NCBI GenBank assembly: GCA_964200075.2
Contig: CAXNAA020000005.1
Location: 1-45,281, forward strand
Reading direction: 5' to 3'
Source of the DNA: Sphacelaria rigidula
Lineage: Eukaryota
DNA: 45,281 nucleotides
Shown piece after piece: positions 710 to 45,281 of the stretch (position 1 is the first letter of the stretch; each line of letters opens with the position of its first letter). The notes below the pieces were generated by a model. That model had not been told where the DNA came from and made no database searches. It worked only from the letters and a program-made list of their open reading frames with translations. The position numbers and the translations under genes were made by a program.

Positions 710-890
710 TTTTCGTTCACCAAGGTACCCCCCTTGATGAATTTTGTAAGGGCCCAAAAGCCGCAATTAACCGTTGTTTTGCTATAATAAAAAACCGCAC
801 TAGATTGCTGCTTTTTAAAAAAGTATAAAAAAAGTATAAAAAATAGTAAAAAATGCAATTTTAAAAAAGTGGGCGGTTAATTGCTGTAAA
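710..890 (+). repeat. Dispersed element copy 1: TTCACCAAGG-TACCCC-CCTTGATGAA core plus GCAATTAA/TAGATTGC/TTAATTGC boxes
   Basis: 710-744 is the exact reverse complement of 27534-27568; the ~790-820 stretch matches ~43612-43646 in reverse with one mismatch. Confidence 0.85.
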
Positions 891-1219
891 ATAGGAGTTA
901 AATTTAAAAATGTATTTAACTTTTCTTAAAACGGAAAATAACGCGGTATTGCCAGCATTTTTATTGTTTATGATTAGGTTCTATATCTTCTATTAAAGTA
1001 TTCAATTTGATCGTAAATATTCACTTTAAAAAGCATATTAAATATGAATTATTATTTAATTAATAGATTTTTAATTTATCTTTTTTCTTTTTTAGCTTCT
1101 TTTTTTATGTTAAATAAAATTCTTTTTGATACAAAAAGTGATGGACGAAAATTGAACTCTTTCAGGACATTCTATATTAATTAGAATGCCTTTTTCCACG
1201 TCTAGCCTTACAAAATTTA

Positions 1220-1914
1220 TTATATTTTTTCTATTACATCATTTACGATTTTCGATACCTCTACAACTGTCATCGGATCTATGTTTGGTATATTATCTTT
1301 CATATGGTTAATAAAAGACTGCATCACATGATCAGCATAATCGGTTTTAGCTAGCATTAATCGGTCTTCACTCAAAATCGTATTATTTATATTTTCAGGG
1401 AATGCCTTGCAAAATTTTTTTGTTAAATTTAATACGTCATATTTTATTTCTAAAATGGTGCGATATATCTCTTCCGGCGTCACATTTTCAATATTTAATA
1501 TTTCACTTTTATTTCCGTTCTCAACATTTAAATTTGTATTTTTATCTACCAAATTTGTATTGATCATTTGTCCCATCACAAAAGTGAATAAAAGTGAAAC
1601 TGAAATAAGAGCAAGTGCTTCGGTTCATGGAATATTATATATATAATCAAAAAGATAATCTGAAAAAGTTTGTTTTTTAGCAGTTTGAATTTTATTTAAT
1701 TCTGCCATTAAAATTTTAATTTGATTTTCTTGTTCTTTTAAAGCATTGAGCATTGCTCGATCGTTAAAAAATATTAAAAACAAGCTAGGCAAAAAAAGCC
1801 TATCAAAATGTATTGAACTTTCACCCAAAATGAATTAGTATTGATTTTACTGTTATCATTTCTTAGCGAGTTTTTATTTCTTGCCATATTTTTTCATTTG
1901 TATTGTTTTTTCAT
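1220..1914 (-). CDS. Orphan ORF, probable membrane protein; 5' part frameshifted or alternative start
   Basis: ORFs 1625-1828 and 1220-1579 fuse with TGA=Trp; an ATG frame from 1914/1887 joins only via a shift at the A7 run 1791-1797. Confidence 0.5.
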
Positions 1915-2159: not shown

Positions 2160-3323
2160 TTATTTAAATACTCTCATTCTACGTCTTTTTTTTCTAACTT
2201 TTTTTGGTGCACGACAACCATTAAAAATCTTTTTTTCTACAACATTATATAAAATTTGTCTTCTTTTGAATTTATTTCTTAATAAACGAAGAACTTTTTT
2301 TCTTAATCTTCTTGGTGTATTAACGTTAATTATAATTCCTCCTTCTTTTTGTACAATTTCATATGGTTTTTTATTATTAACACTACCTTTTACAAAATTT
2401 CTTTTAGTTTGTTTTTTTGTAAAATTATTTCTTATGTTAAAATAAAATTTGTTTATGATTGATTCAAAAATATATCTCATTGTTTTTTTTGAAGCTTTGG
2501 TTTTATATTTTCCAGCAGAACAAGAATCAGTAGTTGAAATATTTTTGTTTATATCAGATAAATTACAAAAAACATTGTTTGGTTTTATAAGAATATTCAG
2601 TCTATGTTTAAAAATATTATGAGAATTAGGTATTAAAAATGCTCTAGATTTTTTAGTAACAAAACGTTTGCGATATAATAATTTTCTATTGCTTTTTTTT
2701 TGTCAACTCTTTATTCTTTTAATTTTTAAATTTGATTGTTTTTTTTCTTCCTCTTTTTGATTTAAATTTGTCATGGCATTAGCATTTTTATCATCTATAT
2801 TTTTTACAGAATCATTAGCTAATTTTTTAGATTTTTTAGTTCATTTAAGAAGAAGTGCTCTTTTAGAAAGATTTTCTTTAGTAAGAGTTGTTTTAATGTT
2901 TGCTTTTCTTATCAAAAATTGATTAATAAGAGCATTATTTTCAAAATCGTTGTCAGAATTAATATTTAAATTCTCATTTTTTTTAATAATATTTTTTAAT
3001 AATTTAATAAAAGTTGTCCTTTTTTGTTCTAAAATAGTATTATTGGTTAATAAATTTCTATTTTTTTCAGATTCTAATTTTAAAATACTATTAAAAAATT
3101 GTATTTTTTTCATGAAGAACATTGGTCTTTTTTTTCTTTTAAACTTTTTAAAATTTTTTCCTTTTTTTTTTAGAAAAGCTCTTTTTCTTTTAAAATTATT
3201 AAATTTTTTTTTATTTGCTTTTTTAGCATTATCTTTTCTCGCAGAATTCATTTTAGCAGAAGTTTTTTTAGCTATAATGTTGTCATTTTGAGTTGATATA
3301 TTTTTTTTTAATTTTTCAATCAT
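2160..3323 (-). CDS. rps11: Ribosomal protein S11 with long basic N-terminal extension (387 aa)
   Basis: One frame with TGA=Trp; NILIKPNNVFCNLSD, SAGKYKTKASKK and C-terminal FNGCRAPKKVRKKRR motifs; follows rps13. Confidence 0.85.
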
Positions 3324-3651: not shown

Positions 3652-3779
3652 ATATTATTATTTAAGTAATTCTTAGTTTCTTTATATACCTCGAATTGTA
3701 AAAATATTTAACAAAAATCAAGTAAATCCTTATAAAAAGACAAAAGCAATTACAATTTTAATTATAAAAAGAAAAATAT

Positions 3780-7823: not shown

Positions 7824-8025
7824 AATAAGCGGAGTTTGGGCTATTTTAAGAATTTAAAAATAAAAATTTAAGGTCGATTTTTATTTCAGAATGTAATTTA
7901 CATTTTTAATTATAAAAAGAGAAAATTTTAAAACAAATACAAAGAGGAAGAACTATTAAAAATATAGAAAAAGAACATTATTTGTTCGTCTATATGATAA
8001 GTATTCTCAAATAAAAATAAAAACT

Positions 8026-9015
8026 ATGTTCTTTTTACATTCAATGACTCAAAAAAAATTTTTAAATAAAGTTTTAGAAAAATTACTATATTTAAGTAGT
8101 TTAATTTCATCAATAAATCCAGAATCTGCGGGAACTCCAAAGACTTGAACTGCGTATTTATATAATGATATCTGATTAGGAATCTATAATGATCCTGTAA
8201 TTTATCCAGCTGTATTATTTTTTGGTACCGTTGGATTTTTTTTATTTCTTCAAGCAGTTAATTCAGGAGGAGGAGGTTCTGGAGGAGGTTTCGATAATTT
8301 TAATCTATCGGACAAATTATCTAGTGTTCCTGAAAATGTTACTATAATTAAGGAAACTAGTGCATCTTCTTTAATGTCTGACGCTGCTAATGTAATTAAT
8401 AATGTTATTACAACTCCAAAAGCAACTGAACAAGTATCGAGTGTTCTTAACGATGCGGTATCTGAGGTTGTGAGTAATGCAGAAAATATTGATACATTAA
8501 GTACTAGTATTTTAGAAACTGTGACTGAAGTTGCAGCAAATAATACTGGTATTTTAGAGAATTTTGCCACTGTAGATATACCTTCAGCTGGAAGTGTTTT
8601 TGTACTTGGTAGTATTTACAGTTTACTTACACCTGCCGTGAGTGCTGCGCTTCAAGCTTCACTGAGTGCTGTATCTACCACTCCAGTTCTTGAGTATGCT
8701 TTAGATCCTATGCCAAGTTCAAGTTTTATTATGGACCTGAGACGTAGTGGTCATTATGATCATGATTTTCTTAAAAATGTTAGTGTAACATTAAAGTCAT
8801 TAAGAATTGAGTATTTGATATTTGATATTAATCTTGAGATGGAATTAGTTCCAGGTCAATATTATTTTCCTTGAGATCTTAAATATTTTGAGGCCTTTAT
8901 AATAGGTATGTCTCCTAATCCTATAGATCCAGTGACAATTATATCAAGTCGAATAATGTTTCATTTACTAAGAAATCAAGGAGTAGTTGGTTTTATTATT
9001 AATCTCAACGAATAG
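8026..9015 (+). CDS. Orphan ORF329, predicted single-pass membrane protein
   Basis: 990-nt frame with TGA=Trp; hydrophobic segment, Gly linker, Ser/Thr/Val-rich stretch; paralogous to 33699-34421. Confidence 0.8.
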
Positions 9016-9667: not shown

Positions 9668-10222
9668 TTAATTGTCCTTATTATTTTTTTGTTTTATTAC
9701 AAATAAAGTATTACATATTGTATAATTAATATTTATTGAATTAAATATTTCATTATTTTTTAAAATTCATAAGTCATTATTATTTTTAGGCATTTTTAAA
9801 AAGAATGATTTCATTTGAACAAATCATAAAGAAGTTTTTTTCTTAACTGTTAAATTAACAGAAGTTGCAATTTGTGAATTCTTTTCAAATGTTTTTAAAT
9901 GTATTGAACCAATGAATTTATTATTATCAATAGAAGTATCGCTTTTTTGTAATTTATTTATTGGATAATTCTTATTATTTTTCGGAGATTTAAAATTAAA
10001 AATAGTATTTGGTATTTTAATTGTTTTATTTTTAAAAGTTATTTCTTTCTCTTTTTTTACTTTTAATAAATCTGGAAGACTTATTTCTTTTTTTGCATTA
10101 AAAAGAGTATTTTTTTCTTTTTTTAGTATTAAATTTGATTGAATTGTTTGATAATTTTGTGCATTTAATAAATCGATTATTAAAGAAGCATTTATTTGTT
10201 TTCTAGCTAAGTTTAAATTCAT
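9668..10222 (-). CDS. Orphan ORF184 (Lys/Asn-rich)
   Basis: Frame extends through two TGA codons to TAA at 9668; starts 3 nt after the upstream ORF. Confidence 0.65.
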
Positions 10223-10225
10223 ATA

Positions 10226-11263
10226 TTATTTTTTACAAAGAAATATCGGTTTTTTAAGACATGATTTATTAGTAAATTGAATTCTTCTTCTTTTTAAAAA
10301 TCTTCTTTTTTTTATAAATTTATGTCTTTTTACGGGAGTAGTATAGTTTAAATCTTTTATTTCTAAAGGTAAAAGGTTATTTTTATTAGAAGAATAAAAA
10401 CTTAAAAAGTTTAATTTAATATTTGTTAATTGTTCTTTTAAATTTTCTATTAAATTCTTATTTGAAATTAAAATATCTTTCATATTAGAAATTTGATTTT
10501 TTGATAAATTAATTAAATTTTCATCGACTAGTAAGGCTTTAGTGTTATTTTCAATAATAAAATTTTTGATCTTATTGAATTTATTATTTAATCTATTATT
10601 AGTTTTATTTAATTTTCTTAATTCATTTTTTATAGGAAGTACTTTTTTTCTAAAATTACTTTTTAATAATTTTTGTTCAGAACTTTCTACTTTCGATGAT
10701 AATTCATACTTTTTTTTAGCTTTTTTATATTCTTTTTTTGGTAAAAAACCAAGAATATTAGAAACTCTAATAATAAAACCGCCTATAGCTGGTCTTACAA
10801 AAGTAATTGGTAAATTATCATTTGTATTAATATATTCAATTAAATTCTTTAATGAGTCTTTAGTTTTTATAATATTACTTTTTGGAGTAGATATTAATGG
10901 AACTTTAATTCTAATTTTATCTCAAAATTTATGTCTTAAAATATACTTATTAAGTTTTACAGATGCACCGATTTTGTTATTAGGTTTTATTTTTTTAAAC
11001 TTTTTCTTTTTTGTTTCGGTTGCTTTTAACTTATTAGATTTTTTTTTATTTAATTTTTTAAACTTAAATTTTTTGTAAATCTTTTTTTGTTTACTTTTAA
11101 GAATAATATCAGAAATAGTAGAATTATCATCAATTACTTTAATTCTTTTTTCATCTTCTACGAAATCTCTTATAAAACCTTTATAATAAATTTCTTTATT
11201 AATTGCTTTTAGATTATGTAAATTGTTTTCTTTAAAATTTCAAATAAATGTTTTTTTTGTCAT
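10226..11263 (-). CDS. ORF345, putative divergent ribosomal protein S1
   Basis: Single frame with TGA=Trp, 4 nt after rpl16; contains S1-like ITFVRPAIGGFIIRVSNILGFLPKKE. Confidence 0.65.
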
Positions 11264-11695: not shown

Positions 11696-13171
11696 TTATT
11701 CTTTCTTTTTTGAAACTTTTGGTTCCTTAGTTATCTCTTTTTTTAATAACTTTTCATCTTTAGATTTAGATGATGCTTTTTTAACTATTTTATCTGCTTT
11801 TTTTACTTTAGTAGATTTAGAAGTTGCTTTCTTCTTTTTTGATTTAGTAACAATACTATTTGCTTTGTATTGTAAAATTACATTTTTAATTGCAAGATTT
11901 TTTGTTCCAACAAATTTTTTACTTTTTTTTAGCTTAATCGAAGTGTTTCTTGTAATAGAAGGACTTTTTTTTGGAATATAAAATTTTACATTATCTGCAT
12001 TTTCTTTAATTTCAATTAATTTACGTTTTAAAGCGGTAATTTTATTAATTGCTTTTAATTTTTTTACTTTATTCGCTTTAGTCATTCTTTTCTTCTTTTT
12101 TGCTAATAAAGGAACTTTCTCATTAGTTAAATCTATCTTTTTCTCCGCTTTTTTATTTTTTATTGCAGAAAAAAGCTTAGTATTTAATTTTTTTAAAAGT
12201 ATTTTAGTTTGTGGAAGAGATAACTTTTTATTTTGTTTTCAAGTTTTCTTTTTTAATTTTTTATTTTTACTATTATCTTTATCAATTTCTTTTTGAGTTT
12301 TAATATAATTTGCTCATAAAGAAAGTCCAAAACAACCATATAAAGTATTAATATGAATTTTACTTAAATCATTTTTTGAACATAAAGTTTGTATTCCAAT
12401 AGCACCTACAGAAAGTTTAAAAGAATTTGAACGTAATTTACCTTTGATTTTTCCATTTAGTAGTAATTTAATACCTTTTACTTTTGATCTTGGTAAACTA
12501 ATTACAACATTTAATACAGTTTTAATAAATGTAAAAAATTTACTATGTGATCTTTTAGGTAAAAAACGAAAAATAGTACCTATAATATTACAAAAAGTTT
12601 CAAGATTTATTTTTTTTGTAGCAAATAAAGAAGTTAATTTAATAAAATCATAAAATAAATTAAAACGTCTAGAAAAAAGAGGTTTTTTAAATTTTCTTAG
12701 TTCTTTATAAATAAGTAATTTTAAACCTAAAATTTCATGTTTGTTAATTAAATGAATTTTTACATTAACTAAATTACTTTTTAGCATTGTTTTTAAGACT
12801 TTAACAACAGTTTTATAGTTACCCTTTTTTTTTAAAATTGCTTTTTTTCTACCTTTATAAGTTCTTTTTAAAAAGTTACGTCTTCCTTTAGTTTGTTGTA
12901 AAGCAAGTTTTCTTTTTACTTGTTGAATATTTTTAACTTTTTTTTTGTATTTTGCAATTTTTTGAGTTTTGAAAAAAACATCTAATGCAACATTAGTATG
13001 TTCGTTAGATATTGTTGTTGTATGTGAAGTAATAATAACACCTTTTTTATCAAAACATTTTTTTAAAACATTGATAAAACTGGTAGTTTCTCACATTTGT
13101 TTTGCATTAAATGAAGTATTTAAATTTTCATTATTTTTTCTTAAAGTTAAAAGATTAGATTTTTGTCCCAT
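11696..13171 (-). CDS. rps3: Ribosomal protein S3 with ~200-aa Lys-rich C-terminal extension (491 aa)
   Basis: MGQKSNLLTLRK start, KGIKLLLNGKIKG, TLYGCFGLSLW; the frame continues to 11696. Confidence 0.9.
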
Positions 13172-20118: not shown

Positions 20119-20290
20119 TTCATAAGGTACCCCCCTTTACTATTTTTTTAAAGAGAAAAACAAGCAATAAACAGCTGTTTTTAAAAACGAAAAAAGCAGG
20201 ATTAATCCCCGTTTTTTTATAAAAGAATAATTTTTGCTAATTTTATTAATTTTTTTATTAAAATAAAAAAAGAATGGTTAGTTGCTGTAA
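20119..20290 (+). repeat. Dispersed element copy 2: AAGG-TACCCC-CCTT plus boxes
   Basis: Core at 20124-20137; GCAATAAA at 20164, TTAGTTGC at 20278. Confidence 0.75.
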
Positions 20291-20341
20291 TTTAAGAAAA
20301 AAGTTACAAATGTAATTATTAAAAGAAAAAACTAAAATTTA

Positions 20342-25616: not shown

Positions 25617-25718
25617 TTAATCAAAAATTAATTATTTATATAAAAATATAAATAAAAAAAATCTATTTTAGTACGTTGTTGTTTTTATATAAACATAAAT
25701 AAAAAAAAATTAAATTAT

Positions 25719-27200
<1,482 letters not shown>

Positions 27201-27246
27201 ATTATATTATTAAATATATTTATACCTTTTTAAAATGAATAAAAAA

Positions 27247-27310
27247 AATAGGTTTTATACATAGCATTAATCTTTATTTTATGTGTCCAGGTTCGATTCC
27301 TGGTTTTATT
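27247..27310 (+). ncRNA. tRNA-like t-element after cox1
   Basis: Perfect T-arm CCAGG-TTCGATT-CCTGG (27287-27303) with no D or anticodon arm. Confidence 0.55.
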
Positions 27311-27389
27311 CCTAATTGATATCTTTCCCGTATTTTATTCTTTTTGCTTTATATTTGAATAAAATTTTGTTGTTCTTTTGTTTACTATT

Positions 27390-27568
27390 TTTAAGCAATT
27401 AATCGCACACTTTTTTAAAATTGCATTTTTTACTATTTTTTATACTTTTTTTAATCTTTTTAAAAAAACCACAGTAGATTGCCGCTTTTTAAAAATAGAA
27501 AAAGGCGATTAATTGCTGCTTTAAGACTATGTGAAATTCATCAAGGGGGGTACCTTGGTGAACGAAAA
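27390..27568 (-). repeat. Dispersed element copy 3 (inverted copy of 710-890)
   Basis: TTCATCAAGG-GGGGTA-CCTTGGTGAA at 27537-27562; 27408-27450 is the reverse complement of ~829-871. Confidence 0.85.
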
Positions 27569-27903
27569 TAATCAAAATAATAGTATATTATATTATTAAC
27601 ATATATATAAATTGATATAATATAATTAGTTTCTTAACAGCATATTAAATATATTCGAATTAAGTGTATATATTAATTACGTTATTAACTATAATAGATA
27701 TATTTAATAATATTAGGATTCTATACACGACCTTTTTGTAACGAACTTATCTTTAGACGAATTTATTACATATGTATTATTTTGCTAATCTTTGCTGGAG
27801 CAATAGTGTTATAAATAATTATTGATAGTATCTAATATATATATCTTTAAGACTAATACTAAAAAGATATAAACTTATTTAAAAGGATTATAATATTAAT
27901 AGA

Positions 27904-28056
27904 GATTAATTGTAAAAATATATTATAATTCAAATTTTAATCATTTTATACAAAATTTAATATTTTAATAAAAGTCAACGATACATCCTGTGTTTTTAAA
28001 ATAAAAAACAGCAATCTATCGTCTATGTTTTTTTTATAAGGGGGTTACCTTGATGT
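27904..28056 (-). repeat. Dispersed element copy 4, left flank of ORF197
   Basis: 37-bp repeat 27904-27940, GCAATCTA at 28011, AAGG-GGGTTA-CCTT at 28038-28051. Confidence 0.75.
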
Positions 28057-28136
28057 GTAAACAAAAGAAAGAAGTAAAAGTTAAAAACACCAATAAAACG
28101 CTTTAAAACGAACAAATAAATTATTTATTTAAAATT

Positions 28137-28730
28137 ATGAAAATTATGTTTATCAACTTAATAATAAAAATAAAGATTACAAGAAACTTCCACACATCTG
28201 CTATACGTAATGCAGAAGATAAAACACAGGAAGAGACATATATGGAAAAGAAAAATCAAGAAATATATGAAAAGCTTCTTGATGAATTGGAACAAATGTC
28301 TTTATTTATCGAAGATAATGAATCTCTTAAAAAAAAAGTAAGCAACGACATTTCTCATAGCTTAAAAGGTGTAAGTATACAATTTGATGAGATGGAGCAA
28401 ATCATGCATTCAAATCTTTCACTTGAAGAAAAGCAAGATAGGCTCGAAAACTTAGAAACTTTACACTTTACTAAGGTGAATCGTGTTTCTCATGCTACTC
28501 CGAAACAATTTAAGACCTTATATGAGAATATAGAAAAATACTTTTACTTAAATTATAATGAGGAAAAAAAAACAACTAAAGAACAAAAAGATTTTCTTAT
28601 TATACTAAATCGTTATATATGTGTTATGAAAGAATTAAATTTAGATTTTTTTTCTTGTTTTATAATTACTTTATATCAAGCAATTTCAACTGCTTATATT
28701 GCTATTTATCGAGATCAATTTAGCGATTAA
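28137..28730 (+). CDS. Orphan ORF197, acidic/helical
   Basis: ATG-to-TAA frame, Glu/Lys-rich, no recognisable family. Confidence 0.7.
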   Translation: MKIMFINLIIKIKITRNFHTSAIRNAEDKTQEETYMEKKNQEIYEKLLDELEQMSLFIEDNESLKKKVSNDISHSLKGVSIQFDEMEQIMHSNLSLEEKQDRLENLETLHFTKVNRVSHATPKQFKTLYENIEKYFYLNYNEEKKTTKEQKDFLIILNRYICVMKELNLDFFSCFIITLYQAISTAYIAIYRDQFSD

Positions 28731-28884
28731 TTGCGAAAATATATTATAATTCAAATTTTAACTTTTTTACTCATTTTTTAATGTTTATAGAAAAAGGGGC
28801 AATCTACCCTTGTTTTATAAATAGTAAAACCCGCAATAAATGCTCATTTTTAATCTATTAAAATAAGAGTAAGGTAGGTACCTT
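28725..28884 (-). repeat. Dispersed element copy 5, right flank of ORF197
   Basis: 37-bp repeat 28725-28761, GCAATCTA 28799, GCAATAAA 28833, AAGG-TAGGTA-CCTT 28871-28884. Confidence 0.75.
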
Positions 28885-29099
28885 TGTAAAAAATTCTAAC
28901 TAAAATAAGAGGAGAAAAGAATCAACGTAAACTAAACAAAAAGGTAAAGAATAAAGAAAAGTATGTATAATATAATAAATATATTACTAGTATGGATCGT
29001 TTATTAATATAGTTCTTTTTGCTCAAAAATACCAACCATAGTATATAAAAGGATAAGAATACTAATAATATATTTTCTATTAATTTTACTAAAAGACTA

Positions 29100-29237
29100 A
29101 ATTTTATTTTTTACTATTTTTATATATTTTTTAACATTTAAACAAAAACCCGCGTATATACGCTATTTTTTAACATATTGAAACAGCGATAGATTGGGGC
29201 TTTTTGTTATTTTTATTTTTATCAAGGGGGTTACCTT
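29100..29237 (-). repeat. Dispersed element copy 6
   Basis: TAGATTGG at 29190, AAGG-GGGTTA-CCTT at 29224-29237; A/T tract resembles 27425-27460. Confidence 0.7.
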
Positions 29238-29278
29238 TTGTAATATTAAAGTGTTGTGTATTTATATATTTTTAAGTA

Positions 29279-29364
29279 AAGAGCCAATAGGATTCGAACC
29301 TACGGTACATATATTGTACTTCAAATTAGCAATCTGATACATTAAACCACTCTGTCATGACTCT
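29279..29364 (-). tRNA. trnS: tRNA-Ser(GCU)
   Basis: Loop TTGCTAA, long variable arm. Confidence 0.93.
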
Positions 29365-29389
29365 ATGTTAAAAAAGAAAGAAAAGAAAA

Positions 29390-29910
29390 GAAAAATTTTA
29401 TTCCAGCCACACGTTCCCGTACGACTACCTTGTTACGACTTCATCCCAGTCATAAGCTCTATAATAAGTAATAAACCCGAATCCAATATTAACTGTATTT
29501 ACTTTTAAAAAGATAAAAACAAATACTGTAAAAGAGTATACTAATTTCAAACAAAACTCACTTCCGGCATGTGACGGGCGGTGTGTGCAAAGTCTAGGTA
29601 CATTTTCACCGTAACGTGCTGATTTACGATTACTTGTGATTCCACCTTTATATAGACGAATTGCAGTCTATAATCCGAACACGAAAGATTTTAAAGATTT
29701 ACTCCAAATTGCTTTATTGTATAACTTTTTGTATTCATTCATTGTAGCACGTGTGTGGCCCAGTCCATAAGGGCCATAAGGGCTTGACGTGATTCTCATC
29801 TTCCTCTAGTATAAAAACACCAGCGGTCGTGTATAAGTGGATCTATTAATCTATAAGGTTAAAGATTACCAAAATACCCGAAGAGTTTCGCCCGTAAATG
29901 GAGTTAACCA

Positions 29911-29945
<35 letters not shown>

Positions 29946-30686
29946 ACACCTGTGCAATAATAGTATAAAAATAGCTTAATTTTCGTACTAACAATATAAT
30001 AACTATATTGATTTTATTTCATTCAAGGACTGGTAAGATTTCGCGCGTATTATCGCATTAAACCACATGCTCCACCACTTGTGTAGACCCCCGTCAATTC
30101 CTTTGAGTTCCAATCTTGCGACCGTACTCCCCAGGCGGAATGTTTAACGCGTTAGCTGTATACCGGAATAACCCAATATTAACATTCATCTTTGACAGCA
30201 TGGACTACCAGAATATCTAACCCTGTTTGCTACCCAAGCTTTCGTTCCTCAACGTCAGTTCTAACCCAGATAGTCGCCTTCGCCGCTGACATTCCTTTAT
30301 AGATCTATAGATTTTACTCTTCCCTATAAAATTCTACTATCCTCAATTATACTCAAGTATCAAAGTCATAAATGCAGAATTAAGAGATTATCCTAATATT
30401 TTACATTTATCAATAGATACCGCCTACAAACCCTTTACGCCCAATCATTTCGGATAACGCTTACTCCTTTCGTATTACCGCGGCTGCTGGCACGAAATTA
30501 GCCGGAGCTTCTTCTCTAATTAATGTCATTATCTTCATTAGCGAAATAACTTTACAGCCAATTTGCAATCGAATAAATCGAAATACAAATCTTTTTTGCT
30601 TTCCTCATTCACGCAATATTACTGGATCAGGCTTTCGCCCATTGTCCAAGATTCCACACTGCTGGCTTATAAAAGCCTGGACCTTA

Positions 30687-30723
<37 letters not shown>

Positions 30724-31010
30724 ACTAAAGATCTTGGGCTTGGTTAGCCATTACCTAACCAACTACCTAATCTTTCATAAAACCATTTTAAAGCGGTAAT
30801 TAACCTTTTGTTATCTAATATTTTCAATTTTAAATTGTTAAATAGTTATTTAAAAAACAACTAAATATTAACTTAAAACCAATTATCTCAGTCTTTAAAG
30901 CAAAGTCTTATGTATTACTCACCCGTGCGCCATGTCTATTAAACATTCGACTAGCATGTGTCAAGTATATTGCCAGCGTTCATCCGGAGCCAGGATCAAA
31001 CTCGCTTTAT
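29390..31010 (-). rRNA. rns: Small subunit rRNA
   Basis: GAGTTTGATCCTGGCTC, GTGCCAGCAGCCGCGGTAATAC, AAGTCGTAACAAGGTAG on the minus strand; ends approximate. Confidence 0.98.
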
Positions 31011-31156: not shown

Positions 31157-31485
31157 AATCGGAAATAAAAAATTAAATCGAGTCAAAATACCTAAAATAA
31201 TTTTTAATTTCTTTTTTGATCATTGATATATTTGTTATAATTTTGATCATTTATATTATAACATCATTTTATTCTTTATATAATTACATTTGTAATCATT
31301 TTTTTGTTTTCCCTCAGATAACCTTGGGTTTTTAACAAACAAAAATAGTTTTAAATATTAATTTATTCTTTTTAGAAAATTTATATTTTATTCTTATATG
31401 TAATTTTTTCTTTATATAATTAAATTTGTAATAAAAAATCCAAATTAGCAGGATTAATCTTTGTTTTTAATATAAAAAAGGAAAA

Positions 31486-33698: not shown

Positions 33699-34421
33699 TT
33701 ACATTCCACCTCATCCAGTTTTACCAACAACAACACAGAAAGTTTGTGCTGCATTAAAACATAGTGCAAAGAGATCTGCTGTAGAACTATCTGATATTAT
33801 ACCTACATTAATACTATTTTGTATAAACTCAACAGGCTTAGAAATACATAAATCACTACTACATATAAACCAACCAGAACCACTAATATCAACATTTGCA
33901 AACAATGCGTTTAAGCGATCTTCACCTAATGTAATGTGTGCATCTGCGGGTATACTACGTGTTAAAGCATCAAATTGCTCAAGAAATTTTTGTGTACTAA
34001 AAGGAGTAGGAATATCTTTAACAACAGCAATATTTTCAACAATAGGAAGACTACCATTACCAGGCATATTTTCACAAATGAGCCCATTTGAATTACCTCC
34101 TTGTCCATATCAAACATTGTTTCAAAATTTTTCTATTCCACCATTTTGTGCAATAATTCCTCCTACGCATACAATACCTAAACCTACACAAACAAAAGCT
34201 CCAACACGGTAAAAGGTTTCTGGATCATTATATACAGCGGCTGAACAATCATAAACATAATTACAATTATCAGCATACCATCCATATCAAGTTCTCGATG
34301 TTTGAATTTTAGTGGGATCTATTGAAGATATTAAAGTAGTAATAACAGGTAAAACACTCTTTAAATTAGTTTTAAATTTATTTGTTAAGTTGGGTACCCC
34401 TAAGTACTGGGTCTTTACCAT
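33699..34421 (-). CDS. Orphan ORF240, predicted membrane protein
   Basis: 723-nt frame with TGA=Trp; paralogous to 8026-9015; the ATG overlaps the cob 3' end by 44 nt. Confidence 0.8.
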
Positions 34422-43213: not shown

Positions 43214-43544
43214 GAAAAATAAAGAAATTTTTCTTTTTATAATAAGATTTATAAAAATTTTAGCTTTTTATTAAGGATAATCCAGCATATTGTATTTTTA
43301 TATATGAAAACAGTTTTGATTACACAAGAAATTACATTAAGATTAAAACAAAAAGAACAAAAAGATATAAAATCAATCCTTTATTAGTTAATTGAATGCT
43401 AATATTATATTCTAACTATACTTGTAACAAAATACTGAATTGAATAATACAAGTATAAAATAAACTTATTACATTATACTCGGATATACCGCTGTTTTTT
43501 AAATATTAAATTAATTTTTATATCTGCTTAAAAATAACTACAAT

Positions 43545-43722
43545 TTTACAGCAATCTACTGTGGCTTTTTTAAAAGTTTAAAAATTTAGCTTTTTTTTCA
43601 TTTTTTTTAATCTTTTTTAAAAAGCAGCAATCTAATGCGGTTTTTTAAAAGTACGAAGCAACGGTAGATTGCTGCTTTTGGACCCTTTGCATTTTGGGTA
43701 AGGTACCCCCCCTTGGTGAAAA
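43545..43722. repeat. Dispersed element copy 7
   Basis: GCAATCTA 43551 and 43627, TAGATTGC 43665, AAGG-TACCCCC-CCTTGGTGAA 43700-43720. Confidence 0.85.
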
Positions 43723-43794: not shown

Positions 43795-44280
43795 AAAAAA
43801 AGCAATTACAAATTTAATTAGATAAAGAATAAAATCTTAAAAAGCAAGCTTTGAATAAAATCAATTTTACATTTTATATAGATCAATCCTGATAAAATAG
43901 AAAACTGATTACAAATCAAAGTACATAAAGAAGAAAATGATATTAAAATTTATATAAATTTTCGATTAAAAATACGAAACAACGGATTATCTGCTGTTTT
44001 ATTAAATTTTAATTACAAATAGAGTTTATATAAAGAATGAAACCTTTCTTTTCAATATATTTGTTTGTTAAAAACTCTTTTATTAAGGGTAATTGCTAGA
44101 ATATCAAAAAAGCAATTACAAATAGAGTTATATAAAGAATAAAACCCTTTTAAAAAAGAGTAAAATCTTTTGAAAAAGAACTTTAAATAGTATTAAATTT
44201 ACGTTTTATATGGATTAATCCGGATAAAGTGAAAATTTGATTACGAATCAAGTTATATAATGAAGAAGATGATTATAATA
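43795..44280 (+). repeat. Degenerate ~150-bp direct repeats in the non-coding region
   Basis: AAAAAAGCAATTACAAAT at ~43796 and ~44106 with colinear similarity downstream; partial copy at 44011. Confidence 0.7.
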
Positions 44281-44329: not shown

Positions 44330-45281
44330 GAGTAAGAGCAAAGCAAGAGCAAAGCAATAGTCTTCGAGCAATGAAAGATGAGATAGTACAGGATAGTAAT
44401 GGAATAATGTGATTTGAATAGCGAGAAGACTTAGAACGTAGACTATACTACAAACTTATGGGCAACCACGAGGGAGAGTAACTTGGAATAGACTAGAACT
44501 GAAATGGAGGACTAGCAAACATGGAATTGAAGAATGAAATGGAATGTTGATAGGCATACATGTAAGGTATAGGCCATGGAAAGTGTAACGACTGATATGT
44601 AGCGAGTAGATCTGTAGACGTAACCGTAGTGTAACGGAGTTGTAGACGGAGACGTAGTATTCACTACGTACGAACGTGTAGTATGAACATAGTCTGAACG
44701 TAGTATGAACGTAAGTATGAAGCCTATATGAGGCGAAGGATGAATGAGAGGCGGCGATGAACTGAGTCTGAAACTATTAGACGAAGGATGAATGCGAAGC
44801 GAGGTGTAACGAGAGTCTGAGACTAGACGGTGGAGACGAGACTGGGAATCGGAGTGTAACGGAGAGGGACAGGGAGATGCAACCAATAGGCGAAAGAAGG
44901 AGTGAAAACGAAGATGAGAATGAAGACAAAGGCTAATAGATGAAGAGGAAGTGAAAGCGAAGGCGAACATGAAGACTGAGACGAATAGGCGAATACGGAG
45001 AGAATACGAAGTGAATACGAAGTGAGTACGTAGTGAATACGGAGACGGAGTCGAAAACGTAGTGTAACGGAGGTGTAGACGAAAGAGATACGTAATACTA
45101 TTACGAAGTATATGAATAATAGAAAGGTAAGAGAGTAAACATAGCACGTAGTGAACGTAGTGAGAACGAACGAAGTGAATGAAGGGATAGGTTTAGGAAC
45201 GGTAATTGAATATTATATGTGTGTAACATAGAATAATAGAAAGGTAAGAGAGTAAACATAGCACGTAGTGAACGTAGTGAG
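44330..45281 (+). repeat. Purine-skewed, GC-elevated microrepeat region ending in a 117-bp-period repeat
   Basis: GTGTAACGGAG x3, GTAGTATGAAC x2, several GAATACG; a 51-mer at 45114-45164 and 45231-45281. Confidence 0.8.

Follow-up and report, generated by a model that had tools for sequence, protein, structure and literature searches.

Dispersed palindromic repeats of mitochondrial genomes are usually short, numerous and without known function; those treated in PMC2800124 and PMC13582874 are for the most part short, at 15-84 bp, or occur in dozens of copies, and a 181-bp repeat is described there from the mitogenome of Plocamiomonas (PMC13582874). The Helentron-type HINE/DINE-1 elements are described as having palindromic sub-terminal inverted repeats of 12-15 bp, a short 3' palindrome, a 3' repeat 38-60 bp from the end and T-rich flanks, with no target duplication according to the same account (PMC4067079). 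The attC sites of integrons are bounded by an RYYYAAC inverse core and a GTTRRRY core in the definition of PMC3053210, the dif/pdif site of 28 bp consists of two 11-bp arms and a 6-bp spacer (PMC6449649), pdif modules are reported to be flanked by inversely oriented sites (PMC13141974), and in the Tn3-family res sites treated in bioRxiv 10.1101/2021.12.07.471667 one protein has three related sites over 114 bp. Here we describe a ~170-bp non-coding module, made up of box 1, a 48-bp T-rich linker, box 2, box 3 and a hairpin core, that is present in seven copies in a mitochondrial genome, in both orientations and only between genes, with four copies head-to-tail in the gap between cox1 and trnS. 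Judged on sequence, it looks more like a self-copying element or a replication-origin-like site than an integron.

The window, by which is meant the whole stretch of 45,281 nucleotides that was analysed, is a complete circular-mapping mitochondrial genome with a 127-bp overlap of its ends. It contains rns, rnl, 23 tRNAs and the protist protein set, translated with code 4, and is of the stramenopile type, with TGA read as tryptophan (TGA 117 versus TGG 2). Both trnT and atp1 are absent from the mitogenome, nad11 is intact, and by comparison with the gene contents given in PMC11528492 and PMC4824035 the genome fits a stramenopile, and probably an ochrophyte such as a chrysophyte. The gap of interest is 2.1 kb long and lies where cox1 (+, end 27200) and trnS (-, end 29279) converge; between 92 and 95% of the words of 25700-31000 were found in four runs of one study, a measure of word content that is silent on variation.

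A number of other features of this genome deserve mention. After cox1, at 27242-27311 (+), there is a decayed tRNA-like sequence in which the T-arm and acceptor stem are intact (Rfam tRNA E 0.086), and among the tRNAs of the mitogenome none was found that would read the 87 CGN codons. Long lysine-rich extensions are seen in an rps11-like ORF (387 aa) and in rps3 (491 aa; 2160-3323, 11696-13171 and 9668-11263 listed jointly), and ORF184 and ORF345, which follow rpl16, have no assignment to a known gene. ORF329 (8026-9015, +) and ORF240 (33699-34421, -) are N-terminal paralogues (28% over 124 aa, E 2e-6); the paralogous part includes a hydrophobic stretch, the C-termini are unrelated, and the layout recalls that of the plasmid-linked family of Leucomyxa as described in PMC11528492. 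ORF240 interrupts the cob-nad11 adjacency seen in four other loci (L012, L030, L048 and L088). Finally, one strand of 44330-45281 and 1-140 is strongly purine-rich with short tandem repeats, and this stretch, whose length may be collapsed because the assembly closes within a repeat, ends at ~131-138 in eight consecutive G, similar to the left half of the module core.

The coordinates of the modules and of the features associated with them are collected in Table 1. Each box is a 28-bp pseudo-palindrome consisting of an A-tract, GC-richer arms around ATYWA and a T-tract, and with box centres set from the central motif the three lie 142, 66 and 32 bp before the core. The centre-to-centre spacings are 76/34/39 in A, C, D and F, 76/34/40 in E and G and 76/33/28 in B, where the distance from box 3 to the core is 11 bp below that of the others. 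Pairwise identity of the modules is 52-80%, with all 21 pairs at z 2.9-15.5 against a background maximum of 2.8 (n=132), and only 4 arm bases are conserved across the cores. When a profile from the 21 boxes is run on the genome, 19 of its 21 best sites are boxes of the set, a result that is circular by construction, and box 1 is decayed in both B and D. No eighth full copy was found with a profile of the seven modules run against the genome; an isolated box centred at 31456, like box 2 of F, stands beside a promoter-like motif and is without a core.

Table 1. Modules, orphan reading frames, 37-bp repeat copies and promoter-like motifs of the window.
Feature	Position	Strand	Details
Module A	27385..27568	+	boxes 27387-27414, 27463-27490, 27497-27524; core 27543-27556
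Module B	27894..28051	+	boxes 27894-27921, 27970-27997, 28003-28030; core 28038-28051
37-bp repeat copy 1	27904..27940	+	box 1 and linker start of module B
ORF197	28137..28730	+	orphan; stop codon at centre of module C box 1
Module C	28715..28884	+	boxes 28715-28742, 28791-28818, 28825-28852; core 28871-28884, degenerate spacer TAGGTA
37-bp repeat copy 2	28725..28761	+	in module C
Module D	29068..29237	+	decayed box 1 29068-29095; boxes 29144-29171, 29178-29205; core 29224-29237
Module E	710..894	-	boxes 865-892, 789-816, 755-782; core 722-735; weak extra box centred 949
ORF202	1220..1828	-	second orphan; upstream of module E, same orientation
Module F	20124..20293	-	boxes 20266-20293, 20190-20217, 20156-20183; core 20124-20137
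Module G	43543..43714	+	boxes 43543-43570, 43619-43646, 43653-43680; core 43700-43714; extra box centred 43487
Promoter-like motif	3746-3777, 7894-7925, 20300-20331	+	
Promoter-like motif	3705-3674, 31299-31268, 31435-31404, 41973-41942, 43055-43024, 43258-43227	-	
Promoter-like motif	43802-44268	+	4 copies; fifth, with one extra base, at about 44013

The original prediction for this locus was of a cassette-like array of four sites in the same orientation, with ORF197 bracketed by duplicated repeat-box-core modules. The four gap cores, AAGG-N6-CCTT, do start 495, 833 and 353 bp apart with the G-rich spacer always on the + strand, and they far exceed expectation, with four in the gap against a shuffled mean of 0.005 (maximum 1 in 200 shuffles) and six in the whole window against 0.585 expected from shuffles. 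The 37-bp direct repeat is as described, with 2 mismatches between its copies and the stop of ORF197 (TAA, 28728-30) in the second; the core starts 98 and 110 bp after the repeat end (~100-110 had been given), and ORF197 lies between the two modules, B and C. The repeat is no more than the stretch that two module copies have best conserved. Whilst the module recognised at two cores is real at both, all four cores carry one upstream, and the array, real in itself, belongs to a family of seven members, three of them outside the gap, each by itself, and two of those on the - strand. The GCAATCTA box is indeed present in both modules around ORF197 but not at equivalent positions, corresponding to box 3 of the left module, at 107 bp from the start of the repeat, and to box 2 of the right one, at 74 bp. 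A dif-like look inside the 37-bp repeat was dropped, as it agrees at about 6/11 positions by eye and is missing from five copies.

The same prediction had named plain tandem duplication as its refuting test, and none of 30 flank comparisons among the gap copies is above background, with all 6 module pairs above it; over all seven modules 5/105 flank comparisons exceed 2.8. Similarity of the gap copies thus ends at the module ends, which argues against duplication of whole units. Whilst B and C are closest to each other in box 1 (71%) and linker (75%), as might be expected of a neutral unit that was duplicated in tandem and is now decaying, the DNA between modules is unrelated, three further copies are found at other loci (two on the opposite strand) and the spacing is conserved, so that this explanation is scarcely credible. 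Nor do the remaining intervals look like the two empty or decayed cassettes that had been proposed, as they have no start-to-stop ORF of at least 60 aa, are 18-21% G+C and are mutually dissimilar.

There are points of likeness to attC arrays as set out in PMC3053210, namely direct sites, an ORF directly upstream of an imperfect inverted repeat, and divergent sequence with kept structure. A gene stands directly upstream in one of the three intervals (ORF197), box 1 tends to pair with box 3, and A-D are direct. However, against the same account the module has no integrase, a fixed length, a core outside the long inverted repeat and copies dispersed in both orientations. Neither GTTRRRY nor RYYYAAC was found in any of the seven modules on either strand from -160 to +30 of the core, and with the defining motifs absent from 7/7 and no integrase in the mitogenome an integron cassette array was rejected. 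The inverted arms around an asymmetric 6-bp spacer recall the Xer dif/pdif sites of PMC6449649 and PMC13141974, but the four gap cores are direct, each with ~150 bp of accessory boxes, where the pdif arrangement of PMC13141974 needs inverse sites, and a pdif array was rejected for this reason; by eye the core arms are unlike the XerD arm of Table 2 in PMC2410131. The Tn3-family res sites, as treated in bioRxiv 10.1101/2021.12.07.471667, are similar in having a terminal site and several dyads at conserved spacing over 100-170 bp. The module has four sub-sites over ~170 bp with a core unrelated to the boxes, and there is no resolvase in the mitogenome, so a res site was also rejected. The site-DNA-site architecture of the original prediction therefore survives and its integron and pdif labels fail (motifs absent, sites direct, no recombinase-like ORF); the array is more structured than first described, and a cassette picture is possible.

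ORF197 is far longer than chance allows, its longest stop-free stretch being 207 codons against a maximum of 131 in 500 shuffles. Its codon index of 0.53 and GC3 of 0.21 compare with 0.62-0.81 and 0.05-0.15 (37 other genes scored), the sole gene that resembles it in codon usage is ORF202 (index 0.50, GC3 0.22), and by this measure ORF197 looks foreign. No homologues of ORF197 were found among 63 candidates, nor any match at E<=0.001 in 1.84 billion representatives, any usable Atlas match, any Pfam family or any among 36 candidate stretches in viral contigs. ORF197 and ORF202 share no similarity (E 0.16), and ORF202 has no homologue among 170 candidates. Single-sequence AlphaFold2 predicts ORF197 to be all-helical with low confidence (mean pLDDT 42). 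Its N-terminus (28137-28220) is basic and contains RNFHTS, which looks like the cleavage motif of mitochondrial presequences and is unexpected in a protein encoded in the mitochondrion itself. A promoter-like motif is absent in front of ORF197 and from the gap, so the module is probably not a promoter and ORF197 would need read-through from cox1.

It could be that such a gene is carried by site-specific recombination, in which a recombinase of tyrosine or serine type would make its crossover at the core, the boxes being accessory sites (res- or cer-like); a cassette would then be an ORF and its downstream module, and crossover between the B and C cores would release an 833-bp circle. This is an unlikely reading, although ORF197 looks foreign, is without a promoter-like motif and has its end within box 1 of module C, and the three dyads are at fixed spacing with B short by about one helical turn. 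In A and E 9/11 arm positions pair around the asymmetric 6-bp spacer, comparable to the 11-6-11 layout of dif in PMC6449649, but only 4-7/11 do so in the other five copies, and the spacer of G is flipped and, at 7 bp, one base longer. Furthermore the spacers around ORF197 differ at 3/6 positions (GGGTTA versus TAGGTA), whereas the pdif events observed in PMC13141974 use identical spacers, the same-orientation pairs E/F and D/G bracket essential genes, and ORF240 and ORF329, likewise unassigned, have no adjoining module. Tyrosine recombinase genes are reported in PMC2410131 from an ochrophyte plastid and two green-lineage mitogenomes, yet no recombinase-like, Rep/helicase or transposase-like ORF was found in this mitogenome (9 ORFs versus Pfam), nor any other credible ORF of at least 80 aa outside its annotated genes; an enzyme may be encoded elsewhere. 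A broader gene-capture system, in which a fixed-geometry module and a trans-acting nicking or recombination enzyme would move the module and the adjacent ORF197 or ORF202 in and out, so that the gap would be an active array of cassettes from which an 833-bp circle can be excised, we consider improbable, and none of that sort is described from a stramenopile mitochondrion in the literature searched, the scope of which excluded most subscription journals.

The copies show several signs of change. E is the closest relative of A, with 82% identity over 186 bp (linker 94%, core region 97%), and the two are recently related. Box 2 is flipped in place in A relative to E and G, the identity of A and E there being 68% forward and 89% reversed. 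Module F, which sits between rpl5 and trnM, has an A-rich linker that matches the linker of A at 57% reversed over 60 bp and 27% forward over 48 bp, a weak sign that it may be inverted relative to A. The closest partner varies along the module, for E being A in linker and core and G in box 2, with B and C paired in box 1, and these shifts suggest conversion between copies. From this we infer that the boxes form hairpins at times, with their orientation unconstrained and their spacing constrained. No consistent flanking duplication was found at the modules, the flanks being AT-rich anyway.

The reading that we put forward, tentatively and with the odds still somewhat against it, is that the module is a non-autonomous self-copying element with the anatomy of the rolling-circle, Helentron-type non-autonomous elements, and that ORF197 is a passenger. 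The dyad boxes, in their fixed geometry, would be bound by a trans-acting protein whose gene lies outside the mitogenome, in the nucleus, a plasmid or a virus; boxes 1 and 3 would act as sub-terminal inverted repeats and the core as terminal hairpin. Copies would persist where tolerated, and the array would arise by repeated insertion plus recombination or conversion between copies. ORF197 would be a foreign passenger, brought in with a copy or trapped between two, for which integron-type machinery would be unneeded. This reading draws on the sharp module ends, at which likeness stops even between the recent copies A and E, and on the position of both foreign-looking ORFs, each upstream of a module in the same orientation. 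It draws too on the pairing of box 1 with its own reversed box 3, at 66 matches versus 56 by chance pairing (34/5040 permutations, p 0.007); of 14 positions 13 match in A, 12 in G, 11 in E, 9 in C and F, 7 in B and 5 in D. RNAalifold also pairs the two boxes, with a covariation energy of only -0.28 kcal/mol. Like the HINE of PMC4067079 the module is short, non-coding and dispersed with pseudo-palindromic repeats of ~14 bp, its box 3 ends about 40-50 bp before the end shared by A and E, and the core arms are 4-10 bp long. The HINE of that account differ in being nuclear, in having an autonomous Rep/helicase partner and in forming families by at least 11 identical repeat bases, whereas the module is mitochondrial, with seven divergent copies, an extra internal box and no partner in the mitogenome.

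Several observations count against a self-copying element. Helentrons have been described from nuclear genomes, box 2 is without counterpart in the HINE description of PMC4067079, and the mitogenome has no Rep/helicase or transposase-like ORF. The distance of 76 bp between boxes 1 and 2 in 7/7 copies would fit continuing selection on each copy, whereas neutral dead copies should gain indels, and conversion among copies already in place could just as well have produced the boundaries of A and E. The covariation of boxes 1 and 3 comes mainly from A, E and G, and for C and E another module's box 3 fits better.

Absence of the module from other loci is a further part of the case for self-copying: in 88 fetched loci, of which the cox1 stretches were the best 80 of 592, there was no match better than E 0.06. 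These best 80 metagenome stretches reach no more than 84-88% identity in Cox1 and represent small portions of their genomes; the comparison shows lineage restriction at best, and such relatives are too distant to bear on variation between strains. No empty site is known, a point against a self-copying element. In the four closest long cox1 loci among those listed, searched over 10 kb downstream, the module was not found and other genes follow shortly after cox1. Five viral and five prokaryote-genome pattern matches cover the core region only, and BLAST against plasmids and phages gave pieces of at most 38 bases, with a best E of 0.01 among the matches listed; all of these are at chance level. 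Two other mitogenome loci (L074, 20740-20753, and L020, 311-324) have an intergenic AAGG-GGGTAC-CCTT with nearby dyads, which is probably chance, since 6 occurrences of the loose core in 522,156 bases compare with 8.4 expected and the DNA upstream has z <=2.8.

In yeast-type mitochondrial origins an adjacent promoter primes replication. The module could likewise be a host cis-element comparable to yeast ori/rep, where a nucleus-encoded protein would bind the boxes and replication would start or be primed at the G-rich core, extra copies being kept for a replication advantage and recombination between direct copies integrating or freeing circles, for example ORF197 with one module. We hold this to be possible if rather unlikely. 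It would fit the fixed spacing at such low identity, and modules E and G bound the largest non-coding region, inverted relative to each other, and each has a further box 70 bp before box 1, weak in the case of E. PMC9054137 gives eight homologous origins for yeast, with 3-4 GC clusters in each, and reports hybrids formed by recombination between neighbours; the seven copies, the AT-rich genome and the four GC-richer sub-sites in each copy agree with this, but the module is shorter than the Saccharomyces ori/rep of that account, its boxes are dyads and its gap copies are without an adjacent promoter-like motif.

The motif in question is a separate 32-bp sequence, TTACAAAT-N4-TTATATAAAGAA, with 13 strong copies scoring at least 21.9, where shuffled genomes give 0-1 sites at >=14 with a profile built on the same motif sites. 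Nine of the 13 are 3-247 bp upstream of genes in sense orientation (trnN, rps13, ORF329, two trnM, rps7, trnP and trnL), the other four are in the large non-coding region, and it is likely to be the mitochondrial promoter; sigma-70-type promoters number 17 versus 18.7 expected. It adjoins F and stands near G, pointing away from the module, but the best score near the gap copies is 5.0, and in the large non-coding region there are a separate promoter-like cluster and a G-run, which does not favour an origin at the modules. Nor does the GC skew at four-fold sites, which is -0.12 to 0.0 in all gene blocks and shows no replication signal; as it is flat, the GC-skew turning points merely follow the coding strand, and an origin/terminus argument from them was rejected. 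Phasing of the T-tracts at 10 bp, as in bent DNA, is not significant either (p 0.1-0.5).

Transcription may be ended by a bound protein, as in mTERF-like logic, and the modules could be terminators or barriers of this sort. Four tandem copies would stop read-through from rns-trnS before cox1, F would end the nad2-rpl5 unit where a new promoter follows, and the non-coding region would be insulated by E and G. Such a role seems quite improbable. It would suit the cores of D and F, 41 bp past the 3' end of trnS(gcu) and 23 bp past that of a gene respectively, the promoter-like motif and then a tRNA after F and G, the lack of a module in any divergent gap, and the A-/T-tracts flanking the boxes, with 4 terminator-like matches in the gap versus 0.3 expected, 3 of them on box 2 of C. 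However, the convergent atp9/orf184 gap is without a module, B, D and F have weak folding z-scores, and the foreign-looking ORF inside the array is left unexplained; orientation is weak evidence here, as a module placed between convergent genes meets a transcript whichever way it points.

Whichever reading is preferred, the module can safely be filed as an unusually structured new variant of the repetitive hairpin-forming elements of mitogenomes. It shares with the hairpin and double-hairpin repeats of PMC2800124 and PMC13582874 that it is lineage-restricted, intergenic, palindrome-rich and without known adaptive function, and differs from those treated there in its four distinct sub-sites, fixed spacing and few, strongly diverged copies. 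That four sub-sites are kept at near-exact spacing despite the loss of up to half of the identity implies a multi-protein DNA complex. Little is known of the cis-elements that serve replication and recombination in the mitochondria of protists, so that with either leading reading, self-copying element or origin-like site, footprinting and origin mapping have a definite object. Should the module mobilise orphan genes, the ORFs of ochrophyte mitogenomes that lack an explanation would gain a mechanism and a link to mitochondrial plasmids such as the pLPM described in PMC11528492.
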